A stretch of DNA of 46,431 nt. Origin: a phage. The DNA lies in the NCBI GenBank assembly GCA_021146965.1, contig GCA_021146965.1_4847.1. One strand, given 5' to 3'. Under the pieces are notes generated by a model, which saw only the letters and a list, made by a program, of their open reading frames with translations, was not told the origin of the DNA and ran no database searches. Of the stretch, positions 1,512 to 16,526 are shown piece after piece. Position numbers and translations under genes: made by a program. The first letter of the stretch is position 1. Each line of letters begins with the position of its first letter.

Positions 1512-1514
1512 ATA

Positions 1515-1540
1515 AAGCCGCATGAAGCGGCTTTTAATTT
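1515..1540 (+). terminator. rho-independent terminator
   Basis: hairpin AAGCCGC-atga-GCGGCTT followed by T-rich run directly after stop of 1137..1511. Confidence 0.6.
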
Positions 1541-1616
1541 GGTGGACACGGACGAATTTGAACCTTCAATCAGCCGATTATTAGTCGGTTGCTTTAACCA
1601 ATTAAGCTACGCGTCC
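1540..1616 (-). tRNA. tRNA-like gene (77 nt, encoded CCA; anticodon loop CUAAUAA, anticodon reads AAU, identity uncertain)
   Basis: minus-strand sequence GGACGCG-TA-GCTT-AATTGGTTA-AAGC-A-ACCGA-CTAATAA-TCGGC-TGATT-GAAGG-TTCAAAT-TCGTC-CGTGTCC-A-CCA folds as cloverleaf: 7-bp acceptor stem (one G-U), 4-bp D stem with GG in D loop, T8/A9, U33, T-loop TTCAAAT; one mismatch each in anticodon and T stems. Confidence 0.45.
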
Positions 1617-2137
1617 ATAAGTGCTGGTTTAAGCATTGCCAGCGTGCTTTCTTAACATCCAGCCCCGTAACCCATACATACCCCTACATATGATTGCGAT
1701 AATGCTGGATATTAAGTGTTGTGGTGGCCGGTGCTGATCTCCGGCATAAGGCGCTTATTCGGCGGCGTCGAGCTTGCTTATTCGCTTGAGCCATCCTCGT
1801 GAGTCAGCCACGTCCCACTGCGCATCAGCCTGCGCATTCACCACAACGGAAAGAGCACTGATGCGCTCACTTGGGACTCCTTAGCCATAACCCACGGGCT
1901 TCTGGTACACCAATGCTCTTACCTGTTGTGTTCCCTGACTTATTAATCACACCTCAGGGACGCAGTGCGCCGAATTTGTTTACAAGGAATCGGAAGACCT
2001 TGCTGACTTACAGGCTATTACGTCGCCATCAGAACAACATCATCGTTTGCATTTATCTTTGTGGTCAGTTTCTAAAAAGTCCGCAAAGTCGCTCACGAAA
2101 ACTATCTGAAATACAATCTACACCACAAAATAATCGC

Positions 2138-2158
2138 TGTCAACACCTGTGATATAAT
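2138..2158 (+). promoter_or_regulatory. putative sigma70 promoter with extended -10 (TGaTATAAT)
   Basis: TGTCAACAC at 2138-2146, TGA+TATAAT at 2150-2158, 37 nt upstream of major tail gene ATG; same TGTCAACAC...TGaTATAAT arrangement recurs at 3531-3556. Confidence 0.45.
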
Positions 2159-2194: not shown

Positions 2195-2914
2195 ATGGCT
2201 ATTTGTGCAAATGATAAAGGCATTCTGGTCGGTCGCATGACCCGACTGTTCCTTGCTGAAGGGTGCGGCGACGCAGTTCCGGATGCAGGCGACTGGAAGT
2301 ATTTAGGCTCAACCACCAGTAAAGGCGTTGACTACTCGCCGCAGACCACTACGTCGGAAGCGGATACCGCTGGCGGCTTTGTTTCTACTCTCGTTACCAG
2401 CTCTGATATGACCATCAGTGCAGAGGTAGAAATCCGCAAGAATGACCCGAGCGATGAGTTTGGCTTCCATCGTCTTGTTGAGATTTACACCACTGAACTG
2501 AAGGCTCGCCGCCAGCCTTCCTTGTGGGTGCGTCAGGTGACTGGTGCAACTATCGTTACCGCGTATTGCAACATCACCAGCATCAGCTACGAAGGTGGCA
2601 CGAACGATATCGTTACTGGTAGCCTTGAGTTTAAGGTTTACGATTCTGACAGCGTTACCGTAGAAAGCCTTGAACCTCTGGCATTCACTACCTACCTGCA
2701 ATCAACTGGCACGGCCGGAAGCCCGTTAACCGTTGCTGTTGAAGGTGGCGTTGCTCCTTACACTTATGTATGGCGCAAAGATGGCGCAGTTGTTGATGGT
2801 GAGTCTGGCGCATCTCTGGCAAGCCCTACCGCTGGCGTGTATACCGTCACGGTAACTGATTCATCTACCGCCCCGGAAATTATCATCAGCACGGCGTGCA
2901 CGGTATCCCGATAA
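2195..2914 (+). CDS. major tail protein with C-terminal Ig-like (Big_2-type) domain
   Basis: 239-aa ORF with GGAGA RBS; C-terminal ~70 aa (TVAVEGGVAPYTYVWRKDGAVVDGESGASL...YTVTVTD) is a typical Ig-like decoration domain of siphovirus major tail proteins; followed by terminator. Confidence 0.6.
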   Translation: MAICANDKGILVGRMTRLFLAEGCGDAVPDAGDWKYLGSTTSKGVDYSPQTTTSEADTAGGFVSTLVTSSDMTISAEVEIRKNDPSDEFGFHRLVEIYTTELKARRQPSLWVRQVTGATIVTAYCNITSISYEGGTNDIVTGSLEFKVYDSDSVTVESLEPLAFTTYLQSTGTAGSPLTVAVEGGVAPYTYVWRKDGAVVDGESGASLASPTAGVYTVTVTDSSTAPEIIISTACTVSR

Positions 2915-2916
2915 AG

Positions 2917-2945
2917 AAAAGCCCCGAAAGGGGCTTTGTTTTATT
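2917..2945. terminator. rho-independent terminator (likely bidirectional)
   Basis: AAAAGCCCC-gaaa-GGGGCTTT hairpin followed by GTTTTATT; lies between convergent genes 2195..2914(+) and 2941..3141(-). Confidence 0.65.
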
Positions 2946-3141
2946 CTTGTGGTGGTTCTGGCAGATTGGCCCAGTGGGTAGCTGGAATTCCGTGACAGCA
3001 GTCCAATTCACTAACAAATATCTTGCTGCCAATATTATCGACAGCTTTACATGCCGCAGTTCTAACAACACCGCGAAATGCTGTAAGAACCATCGTTCCT
3101 TCTTCTGGCATTCGCTCACTACACTTAATCCACTGGCTCAT
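2941..3141 (-). CDS. DUF551-like protein
   Basis: 66-aa ORF MSQWIKCSERMPEEG...IPATHWANLPEPPQE matches the DUF551 pattern recalled from phage proteins; translationally coupled (ATGA) to upstream ORF. Confidence 0.5.
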   Translation of the reverse strand: MSQWIKCSERMPEEGTMVLTAFRGVVRTAACKAVDNIGSKIFVSELDCCHGIPATHWANLPEPPQE

Positions 3142-3281
3142 ATCACCTTGTCCTCATCAAAAATCACGCCAATAACGCGAAGTAAGTCTTTCGCCATGCG
3201 TTCCGCTTCCTCGTAGTCGTAACCTGCATCAACATACAAATCAGTGTAGAAAATCAGGTCAGCTTTTGTTTGTTCGTTCAT
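3138..3281 (-). CDS. small hypothetical protein (47 aa incl. stop)
   Basis: ORF MNEQTKADLIFYTDLYVDAGYDYEEAERMAKDLLRVIGVIFDEDKVI linking two flanking genes by ATGA overlaps at both ends; below ORF-track size cut-off. Confidence 0.4.
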   Translation of the reverse strand: MNEQTKADLIFYTDLYVDAGYDYEEAERMAKDLLRVIGVIFDEDKVI

Positions 3282-3472
3282 TTCTTGTCGCCACTGTTAA
3301 CTAATGCCCAAACAAGTGCCGCAACCCATCCAATAAAGCTCCACCCGACAAGAATATTCAGTACACAGATTGCTGTCGTGTTTGTGTGCTTGCGTTGCAA
3401 AGCCACAAATGATGGAAGAAGATAAACAAATATAACCAATCCAGCAAAAAGCAACAAAATAACAACATCCAT
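3278..3472 (-). CDS. superinfection-immunity-like small membrane protein
   Basis: 64-aa ORF with two hydrophobic helices; motif YLLPSFVALQRKHTNTTAICVLNILVGWSFIGWVAALVWAL resembles the Imm_superinfect family signature (LP..IA..R.H.N..aI...N...GWt.iGWv.AL.WA) from memory. Confidence 0.5.
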   Translation of the reverse strand: MDVVILLLFAGLVIFVYLLPSFVALQRKHTNTTAICVLNILVGWSFIGWVAALVWALVNSGDKK

Positions 3473-3530
3473 AACTCACCTCATTCATATCTCGTTTCGA
3501 TGATTTGAATCTACATCACCACCTCGCAGG

Positions 3531-3556
3531 TGTCAACACTACTGAGATGATATAAT
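3531..3556 (+). promoter_or_regulatory. putative sigma70 promoter with extended -10 (TGaTATAAT)
   Basis: TGTCAACAC 3531-3539 and TGA+TATAAT 3548-3556, ~30 nt upstream of 3586 ATG. Confidence 0.45.
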
Positions 3557-3585
3557 CAACATCAGTCAAATTCAGGATGCAAAAC

Positions 3586-4323
3586 ATGAGCAATCGCACG
3601 CCACTAACAGAAATCGGGGAGATGCGCATCTCGCTTTCTGACAGGAGTTTTTTCTTTAAGCCATCATTCCGTGCCATGAATGAAATTGGCACGCCAAAAG
3701 AAATCGTCGAGGTATACGCTAAGCTCAATGGCATTGATTATATTGCGCCGTTGCAGCACGTCGAATACCTGCCATTTGGCGCGCAGATGCAGGTTATGAA
3801 GACCATCAGCAAACCTGTGTATGGTCGCCATGTACTGAGCGCAGCCTATATCGTCATGCAATCATGCTGTGAAGATGATATTTCTGTGCTGATTGGTGGA
3901 TGGAAGCCAACACCGCGCGGTGTGCGATACGTGCCGGGAGTAATGCCAATTGGCGGCACTGGACATTTGCCAGGTGGAACAGGTGGAATTATTGAGATTG
4001 CCCGCTCATTAATGGAGCACGGCATTATTGGCAAATCACCACTCAAAGTGCCTGAGCGTCTGGAAGAGCAGGGTAAGAAAACCACAAATGAGTTTCATGC
4101 GTCGCAATACATCATCTCAGCGCGCACGCATTTCGACATGACGCGTGATGAGGCCGAAAACCTGTCCATGACAGAGTTTCAGATGATGATTAAAAATAAA
4201 TATCCAGAGCCGAAAGGGTTAACGAAAGAAGAGCGCGCGGCAGAGTACGATCAGGCTAAAGCAGACCGTGAGCGCATGAAGGCACTGGCTGAACGCAAAG
4301 CGAAAAAAGCGAGGAATACATAA
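3586..4323 (+). CDS. putative tail assembly chaperone
   Basis: ORF immediately upstream of tape measure gene (1-nt overlap TAATG); start moved from 3577 to ATG 3586 for AGGA spacing; basic C-terminus; function assigned mainly by position. Confidence 0.45.
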   Translation: MSNRTPLTEIGEMRISLSDRSFFFKPSFRAMNEIGTPKEIVEVYAKLNGIDYIAPLQHVEYLPFGAQMQVMKTISKPVYGRHVLSAAYIVMQSCCEDDISVLIGGWKPTPRGVRYVPGVMPIGGTGHLPGGTGGIIEIARSLMEHGIIGKSPLKVPERLEEQGKKTTNEFHASQYIISARTHFDMTRDEAENLSMTEFQMMIKNKYPEPKGLTKEERAAEYDQAKADRERMKALAERKAKKARNT

Positions 4324-6697
4324 TGGCTGAAGAAGTCGGCGGAATTGTCTATGAAGTCGGGATGGATGTTAAAGGCCTGAAGGCTGGCGCGACAACAGCC
4401 AATAAGACTTTAGGTGACCTTGAATCATCAACCAACAAAACCACAAGCGCCCTTGGCAAGCTGGATAAAAACGCCAGAAATGCTGGCAGCGGAATGAAAA
4501 ATGCTGGCGGCGCAGCTTCAGGGCTAAAAACGCAGATGACGGCTCTTGCTGGCGCAATATCCGTGTCACTGATTATCGAATGGGGAAAGCGATTCCTTGA
4601 TGTTGCCGATAACATGACACAACTTCAGGCAAGGATTGCTCGCTTGTCAACTGATGCGAAAACCGCGAACGAAACATTCAGTACACTGGCAAATATCGCC
4701 TCGACCACTGGCGCAAGTCTCAGCGACACCACGAAGCTGTGGGAAACATTGACGTCATCACTGAAAGAGGCTGGCGCGACAAATGCGCAGGTTCTTAACC
4801 TTACTGACACTCTGCAAAAGATAGGACGAATCGGCGGGTCATCAACAGAAGAAATGGCGAACGCCCTGCGTCAGTTCGGTCAGTCAATTGCTTCTGGCAC
4901 AATCCGCGCCGAAGAATTTAACTCCATCCTTGAACAGATGCCTGAACTTGCGCGCCAGATTGCAGCTGGACTTGGCATTTCAATGGGCGAACTTCGCGCC
5001 AGAATGCTTGACGGAAAGCTGACGGCAGAAGATGCACTGAATGCCATTCAGGACAGGACAAGCATCGTCAATGCTGAGTTTGAAAAACTTCCTCGCACAA
5101 TGGATCAGGCCGTTGGTTCTCTTGAAGTTTCATTCTCCAAACTTGTGGTTGCCGTTAACGATGCCACTGGCGCATCAAAAACAGCAGTAGAGATTATCGA
5201 CCAGCTGGCAAAATACATTGATTTCCTCGGCGACAAATCAACCAGCACGAGCGACAAGATTCTATCTCTCGCCACGGTTATCTCGAAGCTAAACCCAGGC
5301 GCATGGGCACAAATGGGGGTTGATGCGCTTTTCGGTGATGATGATATTGAGAAGCAAAAACAATATAACGATCAAGTCGAGCGATTCGTTAAGGCTTCAA
5401 AAGAAGGTTACGAGCAGACAAAGAAACAGGCTGAAGCAACAAAACACCTGAAGATTGCACAAGCACCAACCAAAGACAAGAAAGGCAAAGGAAAGGGCAA
5501 AAGCGCCGAAGAACGGCAAGCTGAGTCAGTTGCTGAAAAGCTGGAGAAATTACGCCAGCAAACCATGCTTAATGCCACATCTACCAGCGAACTCTCCCGC
5601 GATCAAGCCATCCTCAACGCGCAGCAATCGCTTGGCAAGGCTGCCACTCAGGAACAAATAAAACTGGCTGGCGAGTACGCTGCGAAGATTTGGGACCAGA
5701 GAAACGCGCTGAAGGAGCAGGCAGCAGCTGAGAAAGAAAAGCAGCGCGTAGAAAAATCATATCAGGGGTTGCGCGCCATTGCGTCACCAACATCTGGCAT
5801 TGATAGTGAATACCAGCAACGCATGGCTGACCTTGACGCCTACGCCGCAGCATATCCACAAAAAATCACGGAGATTGAGCAGACTCGCGCAGCAATTGAG
5901 GCACAGTACCGCCAGCAGAGAATGGACGCCATGTGGGCTGAATGGCAGCAGCAAAGCCTCGGGGCGCAATTGTTCGGCACGGCGCTTGATTCAGCGATGA
6001 GTACAGCATCAAACAGCATCACTGGATTGCTCACAGGCACAATGAGCGTTCAGGATGCAATGCGCAGCCTCGGCTCTACGGTGCTGAATTCTCTGGTAAA
6101 CAGCTTTGTTGAAATGGGCGTTCAGTGGGTTAAATCCGCCGTTATGGGGCAGACTGCGCAGGTTGCGGCAACAGCTACCACCACAGCGGCGCAAACGGCA
6201 GGACTCGCAACCACAACAGCAGCATCAACTGCAGCGGCAGCAACCACTACCGCAGCATGGACTCCAGCGGCAATCGTAGCATCAATCGGTTCATTCGGCG
6301 GGGCGGCTGCAATTGGTGTAGGTGCTGTTCTCGGGGCACTGGCAATGGGTATCGCTGGCAAGCGAAAAAATGGCGGCTCAGTTAGCGCCGGAAGTATGTA
6401 CGAAGTGGGCGAAAATGGCTTGCCTGAAATATTCCAGGCGTCCAACGGTCGCCAGTATATGATTCCCGGCAACGATGGCTCAGTTATCAGCAACAAAGAC
6501 ATTACCGGAAGTGGCAGTGGCGTTGTGGTTTATAATAACGTGATAAATAACAGCTCTGCTCAGGTTAGCAGCAGTGCCAGAGATAATGGTGATGGCAGTG
6601 TGACGATTGAGACTATCGTTAGTGATATCGAAAACAACGGCCCTATCGGGCAAAGCATTGGAAGAAACTACTCAGCAAGCCGGAGGGCAACTGAATA

Positions 6698-6698
<1 letters not shown>
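4323..6698 (+). CDS. tail tape measure protein
   Basis: 791-aa protein, long coiled-coil-like central region, Ala/Thr-rich hydrophobic segment (AQTAGLATTTAASTAAAATTTAAWTPAAIVASIGSFGGAAAIGVGAVLGALAMGIAG) typical of TMPs; largest tail gene. Confidence 0.8.
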
Positions 6699-16100: not shown

Positions 16101-16526
16101 TTAATCTACGTCATCCAGCAAGCCAAAATAGAAAAGCGTGGCTTTTTTTAATTCATCAAGCCCATAAGCTATGGCAGCATAATGACCAAGCCTGCACATC
16201 TCTGTTAGCACTGCTGATTGATCCTTGCTCACCCTGCTTTTGCTTTTATCGCGGCGCTTTGCTTCAATCATCCCACAACTGTGATTTACCCCCGGAGTCA
16301 TTATCACATTGTCGCCTATACCAGCCTTAACCCCCATCTTCTGGCGCTTCAGCACAAACTGCACCCTGCTTGATGTGCCAGTTTCGTTGGGTACATGAAA
16401 CCACAGAACATCAGGGAAGCGGTGTTGCATCCATGTTCCATAACCCATCTGGTCAGTCTCCTCTTTTGGGCATTCTCCTCGATAACCGCTATCAAATACC
16501 CATATACCGCTATCAAGCTGCTTCAC
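16101..16526 (-). CDS. VRR-NUC domain nuclease
   Basis: 141 aa; GMIEAKRRDK...SKDQSAVLTEMCRLGHYAAIAYGLDEL fits VRR-NUC (D..EAK then Q..w...G) pattern; adjacent to SF2 helicase as commonly seen; GTG start with AAGGA RBS. Confidence 0.6.
   Translation of the reverse strand: MKQLDSGIWVFDSGYRGECPKEETDQMGYGTWMQHRFPDVLWFHVPNETGTSSRVQFVLKRQKMGVKAGIGDNVIMTPGVNHSCGMIEAKRRDKSKSRVSKDQSAVLTEMCRLGHYAAIAYGLDELKKATLFYFGLLDDVD

Follow-up and report, generated by a model that had tools for sequence, protein, structure and literature searches.

An antisense operon within the tail module

The window, by which we mean the whole stretch of 46,431 nucleotides that was analysed, belongs to a virulent Skatevirus-like siphophage of E. 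coli/Salmonella. Between two plus-strand genes of its tail module, three genes are found on the minus strand. The first gene of this operon, imm (3278..3472), codes for an Imm_superinfect protein of 64 aa, the second, p47 (3138..3281), for a peptide of 47 aa, and not of 46 aa as given in an earlier note on this DNA, and the third (2941..3141) for a stand-alone DUF551 domain of 66 aa. As that note had described, the three ORFs are chained by ATGA overlaps: ATGA is present on the minus strand at either junction, with AAATGAAC at 3283..3276 between imm and p47, and ATATGAGC at 3143..3136 between p47 and the DUF551 gene. A strong Shine-Dalgarno (SD) sequence, GAGGTGAG, is located on the minus strand at 3475..3482, 5 nt upstream of the imm ATG. 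In the window p47 has no SD sequence of its own, and the DUF551 gene has an AAGGTG-type site. When searching phages in which imm does not overlap p47, an SD-like AAGG/AAGGAG was found for p47, a pattern that would fit translational coupling in the window.

The operon is preceded on the plus strand by the gene of the major tail protein (2195..2914; phrog_853, 289 bits), which carries a C-terminal Ig-like domain, so that this side of the location proposed earlier holds. On the other side, the gene named there as the tail assembly chaperone (3577..4323, plus strand) encodes a DUF6246 protein (PF19759, 225 bits; phrog_791); its chaperone role is assigned by position, because the tape measure gene follows it immediately. 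That gene (4323..6698, plus strand) encodes a protein of 791 aa that is annotated as tape measure in relatives. It has a single strongly hydrophobic segment (residues 648-680) that appears suited to membrane insertion, and distant similarity to the tape measure of Jerseyvirus SETP7 was found over its last 115 aa.

Both ends of the operon carry predicted transcription signals, in agreement with the earlier description of a bidirectional terminator and a divergent promoter region. Directly downstream of the operon lies an intrinsic terminator (2918-2937), AAAGCCCC-GAAA-GGGGCTTT, with an 8-bp stem containing 5 GC pairs, a loop of 4 and T-runs on both strands. It is common to the major tail gene on the plus strand and the antisense operon on the minus strand, and it was kept in 10/10 Skatevirus-like genomes examined, window included. 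Upstream of imm, a sigma-70-like promoter was predicted on the minus strand at 3508..3536 (TTGACA-17-TAGATT; 10/12 matches in a consensus scan). A longer motif, TGATGTAGATT, contains its TAGATT -10 element, and TGAYGTAGATT occurs at 15 sites in the window with at most one mismatch, against 1.6 expected, mostly where blocks of genes begin. On the plus strand, a sequence match to an extended -10 element, TGATATAAT, at 3548-3556 predicts a divergent promoter for the chaperone-position and tape measure genes. Exact TGATATAATC sites were found only twice in the window, in the 3548-3556 region and at 2150, ahead of the gene for the major tail protein. The two predicted promoters thus form a back-to-back pair (3508-3556) within the 104-bp gap between imm and the plus-strand gene 3577..4323.

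These signals were compared in 13 genomes from several genera, window included. TTGACA and TAGATT on the minus strand and TG(A/G)TATAAT on the plus strand were invariant in 13/13, with an inter-hexamer spacer that varies by lineage, and the leader and ribosome-binding site of the operon were unchanged whichever gene comes first. The invariant hexamers are good comparative evidence for functional divergent promoters. The whole bidirectional module was also observed in duplicate at 2115-2159, with the major tail gene on one side and another antisense unit, which bears a tRNA, on the other.

Relatives and existing annotation

In a DNA search, the region matched 152 phage records. Nearest were the Escherichia phages vB_Eco_ZCEC08 and HC6 (96-97% identity), followed at ~90% identity by Skatevirus, Swiduovirus and Deseoctovirus phages of Salmonella, Shigella and E. 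coli hosts. No match to the region was found in 5,426 complete E. coli genomes, by which a prophage origin was ruled out. In addition, no integrase and no repressor is annotated in swi2, a relative annotated in full, and the literature describes relatives in the group as lytic.

More than 100 public genomes already carry annotated near-identical operons, and in the deposited records the three genes are labelled 'superinfection immunity protein', 'hypothetical protein' and 'DUF551 domain-containing protein'. The record of phage Skate also has two annotated terminators and a comment on the absent ribosome-binding site of p47. Since nothing in the window departs from what the records of the phage group already annotate, the cassette is already known.

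All three genes are under purifying selection

We compared the orthologous region of eight relatives. In the minus-strand frames, pooled pN/pS was 0.10 for imm, 0.047 for p47 and 0.165 for the DUF551 gene (the latter calculated within its own allele class). In the flanks, the major tail protein gave 0.062 and the chaperone-position gene 0.048. Apart from the nearest relative, ZCEC08, dS was 0.4-0.9 in all comparisons. The three genes are protein-coding and under purifying selection, and the overlapping plus-strand ORFs are shadows. That the minus-strand ORFs would instead be chance frames in a spacer, or shadows of the plus-strand ORFs 2896..3216 and 3270..3425 (106 aa and 51 aa), the first annotation of phage E1 having indeed placed a wrong-strand ORF over p47, is refuted to practical certainty by pN/pS values of 0.05-0.17 with abundant synonymous change, by strong Pfam and PHROG matches of the minus-strand ORFs and by the conserved start contexts and overlaps.

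Imm is a relative of T4 Imm

The Pfam search proposed earlier for 3278..3472 was positive. Imm matched the full 42-position model of PF14373 (Imm_superinfect) over residues 16-57 with 67.1 bits (cut-off 27.9), and phrog_1039, 'immunity to superinfection', with 87 bits. In a BLASTP comparison with T4 Imm (from NC_000866), 34% identity was found over 62 aa (E 1e-12). On these scores imm is a clear relative of T4 Imm and a member of PF14373. In the alignment of the two proteins, T4 R33 corresponds to R27 and T4 W50 to W44. W44, as well as G43, P20 and N39, was invariant in 28 homologues, and R27 was present in most of them but not in all.

A two-helix membrane protein had been proposed, and the Kyte-Doolittle profile calculated over 19 residues showed two hydrophobic peaks, of 2.77 (residues 1-19) and 2.16 (residues 40-58). 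The AlphaFold2 model (pLDDT 78) contains helices at residues 2-26, with a kink at P20, 32-42 and 46-57, and places G43-W44-S45 in an inter-helix loop. Among viral models, all structural neighbours of Imm are annotated superinfection immunity proteins. Imm is predicted to be a small integral inner-membrane protein.

A sequence search of the PDB found no meaningful match to Imm or to the DUF551 protein. NCBIfam and PADLOC likewise gave no significant match for Imm, p47 or the DUF551 protein, the best hit of Imm being '2TM-TIR' at 15.9 bits. In the literature we found no experiment on any siphophage PF14373 protein, the Imm of the window included. Among the three products of the operon, only Imm has any link to exclusion.

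p47 and the DUF551 protein

The second protein, p47, is acidic (12 D/E and 5 K/R) and soluble. It matched only phrog_17424, a family of unannotated function, with 125 bits over 47/47 positions. An exhaustive HMMER search against 1.84 billion representatives returned 7 clusters and a word-indexed search 10 close clusters; all of the relatives are unannotated short proteins from phages or metagenomes. By these searches p47 is a member of a tiny phage-only family. It was found in 205 phage records, every Skatevirus-like record included, and for the 152 Skatevirus-like records of the DNA search the genus breakdown was identical in the p47 search.

The third protein had been described as DUF551-like, and it indeed aligns with positions 1-68 of the 68-position PF04448 model (52 bits, cut-off 22). 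Its predicted model is a small all-beta domain with a weak Tudor/SH3-like resemblance. At least three alleles were found, which are less than 45% identical and share the termini MSQWIKCSERMPEEG... and ...THW(M/A)xxPEPPQE. In the literature, DUF551 is an uncharacterised portable module of lambdoid ea/nin-region proteins. In the operon it is probably a dispensable accessory domain, the alleles of which can be swapped.

The contents of the slot vary around p47

In all relatives examined, an antisense unit of varying content occupies the slot that separates the major tail gene from the DUF6246/tape measure genes. The order imm - p47 - DUF551 of the window is also found in ZCEC08 and in swi2, where Imm is N-terminally extended. 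In BS5 a 91-aa gene is located upstream of imm, and in Skate a gene for a 97-aa signal-peptide protein (phrog_2315). KFS-SE2 and C1 have the 97-aa gene upstream of imm and in addition a NinX/DUF2591 gene between p47 and DUF551. The NinX/DUF2591 gene is in the same position in AB4P2, where imm is preceded by no more than a short ORF of 37 aa. Seszw_1 carries the 97-aa gene, p47 and DUF551 without imm, and E1 only an exported protein and p47, followed by a 3' remnant of DUF551. In the Roufvirus and Klebsiella relatives, p47 occurs with or without imm and is followed by HNH or other small genes.

The 97-aa signal-peptide protein is absent from the window. It was considered as a possible analogue of T4 Spackle, to which it corresponds in length and periplasmic location, but it matches phrog_2315 only, the function of which is unannotated.

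p47 is the only gene present in every relative examined, and imm, DUF551 and the others behave as gene-sized indels. p47 stays fixed in the slot, whereas imm and DUF551 each vary on their own, so that the three genes do not form a single mobile element. The absence of imm is clear in Seszw_1 and E1, and single-piece matches to the 97-aa-p47 arrangement suggest that it is also absent from several other isolates. In an alignment of Skate with Seszw_1, the match is perfect as far as the stop codon that ends the 97-aa gene and resumes at the p47 ATG. The sole difference between these points is a 32-nt spacer plus imm in Skate versus 9 nt in Seszw_1. imm is therefore an accessory gene that is gained or lost as a clean indel, and many natural relatives are without it. 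Across ~70 seszw records, comprising wild-type and genome-reduced phages, the 97-aa gene and p47 were present in all, even at 36,991 bp, and DUF551 was missing in at least one mutant (seszw_220S).

Among relatives whose tape measures span ~790 to ~1,100 aa, the conservation of Imm is 89% or higher. Because it is conserved despite the varied tape measure length, its target, if this is the tape measure, must be a conserved sub-region. Tape measure length itself does not track imm, being 2913 nt in C1 (with imm) and 2910 nt in Seszw_1 (without imm).

These data also bear on the term moron that the earlier note had used for the cassette. A promoter and terminator of its own are part of the HK97/HK022 definition, and both are predicted from the sequence here. 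The GC content is lower than the 46.5% of the window, being 40.5% in imm, 42.4% in p47 and 45.8% in DUF551, although the shift is modest. As extra DNA, imm and DUF551 are absent or reduced in some relatives, and p47 is found in every record. Expression from a repressed prophage for the benefit of the lysogen, which also belongs to the classical definition, is inapplicable because the phage group is virulent, with no integrase or repressor annotated in swi2 and lytic relatives. The term thus holds by analogy only.

A probable role of Imm in exclusion

Considering all data, the explanation that we favour, and which we regard as probable, is that of a self-contained antisense imm-p47-DUF551 operon in which Imm, as a member of the T4 family, is an exclusion protein. 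The promoter at 3536..3508 would drive a transcript of ~0.6 kb ending at the hairpin 2937..2918. A strong ribosome-binding site is present at imm only, and translation would reach p47 and DUF551 via the ATGA stop-start overlaps. Imm would then be inserted into the inner membrane of the infected cell.

T4 Imm blocks DNA injection by later-arriving phages. According to a 2026 preprint, it co-purifies with the T4 tape measure protein gp29, the binding being a result obtained at ~6 Å resolution, and the substitutions R33A and W50A weaken exclusion. In HK97, the inner-membrane moron protein gp15 (YebO-like) blocks DNA entry with a specificity that is set by the incoming tail. Because of the T4 Imm-gp29 contact, the aligned residues in Imm, the hydrophobic segment of the tape measure protein and the HK97 gp15 precedent, we infer that Imm may stop genome entry of later-arriving phages of the same or a related type by engaging their tape measure protein. 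By the same analogies, exclusion is probably tail- or tape-measure-specific and directed at related rather than unrelated phages. Against this explanation speak the shortness of Imm, which has neither of the terminal extensions of T4 Imm, its conservation across tape measures of differing length, and the many natural relatives without imm. Early expression of imm is not claimed: the promoter looks sigma-70-like, but the only transcriptome found, RNA-seq of Kagunavirus K1B4, in which the gene arrangement is as in the window, puts the imm homologue in the late class.

A different view of the locus, which we judge to be possible but the less likely one, is that the slot is primarily the home of p47. 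In that case p47 would be needed for the lytic programme of the phage, imm and DUF551 would be passengers on its promoter and exclusion would be a side function; p47 might, for example, control host or phage transcription close to the divergent tail promoters. This is compatible with our favoured explanation for Imm itself. The presence of p47 in all 205 slot records, from Skatevirus, Macdonaldcampvirus, Roufvirus and Klebsiella phages, speaks for it, as do its pN/pS, the lowest of the three, its retention in every seszw record, including the minimal genome, and the conservation of promoter and leader whatever the first gene is. On the other hand, p47 showed no homology to anything of known function in Pfam, PHROG, NCBIfam, PADLOC or HMMER searches, and its retention in the seszw phages could reflect inefficient targeting and not essentiality.

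More speculatively, and on balance unlikely, imm could be linked by selection to the tape measure gene as that of its target, with p47 as an essential small regulator that shares the divergent promoter. If true, the head-to-head layout of imm with the chaperone and tape measure genes would keep matched immunity-target pairs together through recombination. Immunity genes similarly adjoin the genes of pore-forming colicins. In the six lineages sampled for this comparison, the head-to-head layout was found in Skatevirus/Roufvirus-type phages and in Guernseyvirinae and is echoed by HK97 gp15, whereas in actinophages imm is located elsewhere.

It is rather improbable that Imm provides broad defence by excluding unrelated phages, on which the earlier note had proposed to test it. 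As this would suggest, members of PF14373 do occur in phages of very different kinds, with T4-likes, Guernseyvirinae and actinophages among its 1,811 phage records. However, T4 Imm works by directly contacting the tape measure of T4, and the specificity of HK97 gp15 is determined by the tail. Moreover, a virulent phage would gain little from guarding a doomed cell against phages with which it does not compete. A slightly poorer prospect still is that of an Imm-like protein with another membrane role, for example in the timing of lysis or in resistance to lysis from without. The K1B4 transcriptome paper puts the homologue in the late class and also mentions lysis, and Imm overlaps weakly with further families of small two-TM proteins (DUF3302, 23 bits, below the cut-off). 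Against this, the holin, endolysin and spanins are ~15 kb away on the swi2 map, and the residues aligned with the T4 exclusion residues are conserved.

The window alone matters little, as its genes are near-identical to deposited and labelled ones and the function predicted for Imm is the textbook function of its family. Its comparative value is modest: a T4-type Imm is present in a virulent siphophage group, in which it is gained and lost as a gene-sized cassette. In this group imm also adjoins the gene of its probable target, and these phages offer a tractable siphophage system for asking whether the mechanism of T4 Imm and tape measure is general. In addition, phages of Skatevirus and Jerseyvirus are in popular use for biocontrol, and a phage cocktail would lose efficacy if its members excluded one another.

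Comparison with known systems

Among the closest systems are the deposited relatives. Skate (NC_054639), BS5 (NC_054646), swi2 (NC_054649) and ZCEC08 (PP213477) share the core gene order, overlaps, terminator and promoter with the window, and the ZCEC08 cassette has 97-98% amino-acid identity. Among the deposited Skatevirus-like phages, some add the 97-aa, 91-aa or NinX genes, while others are without imm or DUF551.

In Guernseyvirinae (Jerseyvirus SETP7 and Kagunavirus fPoEco01), a 39% identical imm is likewise the first gene of an antisense cassette, which is located between the tail tube and the chaperone/tape measure genes and divergent from the chaperone gene. However, the tail tube protein is not detectably homologous to that of the window, the tape measures are similar only in the C-terminal 115 aa, and the chaperone genes belong by annotation to different families with no detectable homology. 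The downstream genes of the cassette also differ (a metallophosphoesterase and others), and p47 is absent.

The DUF551 domain is shared with P22 EaA, Stx-phage Ea22 variant 2 and CPS-53 YfdS, where it is portable and has a mosaic distribution. In those systems it is part of lambdoid ea/nin-region proteins, whereas here it stands alone as a 66-aa protein encoded in the tail module of a virulent phage.

HK97 gp15 resembles the predicted arrangement of imm in being a small inner-membrane protein whose gene has its own transcription signals and lies in the tail operon near the tape measure gene. It belongs to an unrelated protein family, and HK97 is temperate with gp15 made from the prophage. The position differs as well: the gp15 gene lies between the chaperone and tape measure genes, whereas the operon of the window is antisense and lies between the major tail and chaperone-position genes.

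T4 Imm, finally, is detectably homologous to Imm and belongs to the same Pfam family; both are small, hydrophobic, helical proteins encoded by virulent phages, and the counterparts of T4 R33 and W50 are conserved, although R27 is not found in every homologue. T4 Imm is longer (83 aa versus 64 aa), with N- and C-terminal extensions that are absent here, and T4 is a myophage whereas the window is from a siphophage. Moreover, T4 imm is located in an early region between genes 42 and 43, while imm of the window is in the tail module, head-to-head with the chaperone-position and tape measure genes.

Duplicated promoter module and the second antisense unit

The window holds two copies of a back-to-back promoter module, at 2115-2159 and 3508-3557, each placed between one antisense unit and one plus-strand tail gene. 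When read on the minus strand, the layout is GATTATATCA, 3 to 9 nt, GTGTTGACA, 17 nt and TAGATT. Exact TGATATAATC sites occur only twice in the window, and both belong to the two copies. At the slot, the antisense unit faces the chaperone-position gene (DUF6246; 3577-4323, plus strand), whose product has 248 aa in the window and in swi2 but 238 aa in the remaining relatives compared.

The second TTGACA-17-TAGATT promoter (2143..2115, minus strand) is separated by about 500 nt from a tRNA-Ile gene with anticodon AAT (1540-1616, minus strand), which was predicted by ARAGORN, matched the Rfam tRNA family with 56 bits and is followed by its own terminator (1534..1514, minus strand). A34 is unusual in a bacterial-type tRNA-Ile. 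The AAT anticodon is common to the window, ZCEC08 and Skate, and the equivalent gene in swi2 and the Roufvirus relatives has CAT. No substantial ORF was found between the promoter and the tRNA (1617-2143, minus strand), and Rfam returned only sub-threshold tmRNA-like matches for this stretch. In swi2, ARAGORN predicts a 'tmRNA' that spans both the equivalent stretch and the tRNA (L020, 12047-12421). The stretch may represent either a long leader or a structured RNA that has escaped recognition.

Throughout the window, the 11-mer TGAYGTAGATT is in strong excess, with 15 sites at no more than one mismatch (seven of them exact) compared to 1.6 expected. Sites were found, for example, at 16103, 22696/22713, 27522, 32272/32299, 35524 and 45527, and they are frequently paired at a distance of 17-30 nt. 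At many of the sites in the window no recognisable -35 was present. The 11-mer could represent a phage-specific promoter class or the binding site of a regulator.

Probable exchange of genes within the antisense slot

At least three alleles of DUF551 (window 2941-3141, minus strand; L003; L009), less than 45% identical to each other, are found among genomes that are otherwise about 90% identical. Conservation is confined to the N-terminal ~15 and C-terminal ~12 residues of the alleles, which suggests that they were replaced via recombination within these conserved ends. In Salmonella phage E1 (L019), a short 3' remnant of DUF551 (…PQPPQEQ) is retained just before the terminator. In the E1 record (NC_010495; L019, 1495-1674), a 'hypothetical membrane protein', VIP0030, is annotated over p47 on the wrong strand. 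In the window, the 3' end of the p47 coding sequence contains a terminator-like hairpin followed by TTTTTGATGA (3164-3180, minus strand), directly preceding the start of DUF551, which could attenuate DUF551 expression or be due to chance.

In BS5 (L002), a 91-aa gene has been inserted, carrying along a promoter of the Klebsiella phage type. Downstream of this gene and immediately upstream of imm, the promoter -10 and leader occur once more in degenerate form (…GTGATGTAGATCCAAGTC…AATGAGGTGAGTTATG). This arrangement is a record of a slot rebuilt through insertion.

Comparison with known systems

In many relatives the first gene of the operon encodes a signal-peptide protein of 97-112 aa (phrog_2315; L003, 2821-3114, minus strand; L009, 1358-1651, plus strand; L019, 1150-1488, plus strand), which is absent in the window. 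Spackle of phage T4 is a periplasmic protein of 97 aa, and the phrog_2315 protein can be likened to it in its equal length and putative periplasmic site.

Homologues of imm are also present in the Guernseyvirinae phages SETP7 (L015, 3486-3665) and fPoEco01 (L016, 3354-3683). Although the flanking tail genes have no detectable homology to those of the window, the imm homologue likewise comes first in its cassette, which runs antisense and separates the tail tube gene from the chaperone and tape-measure genes.
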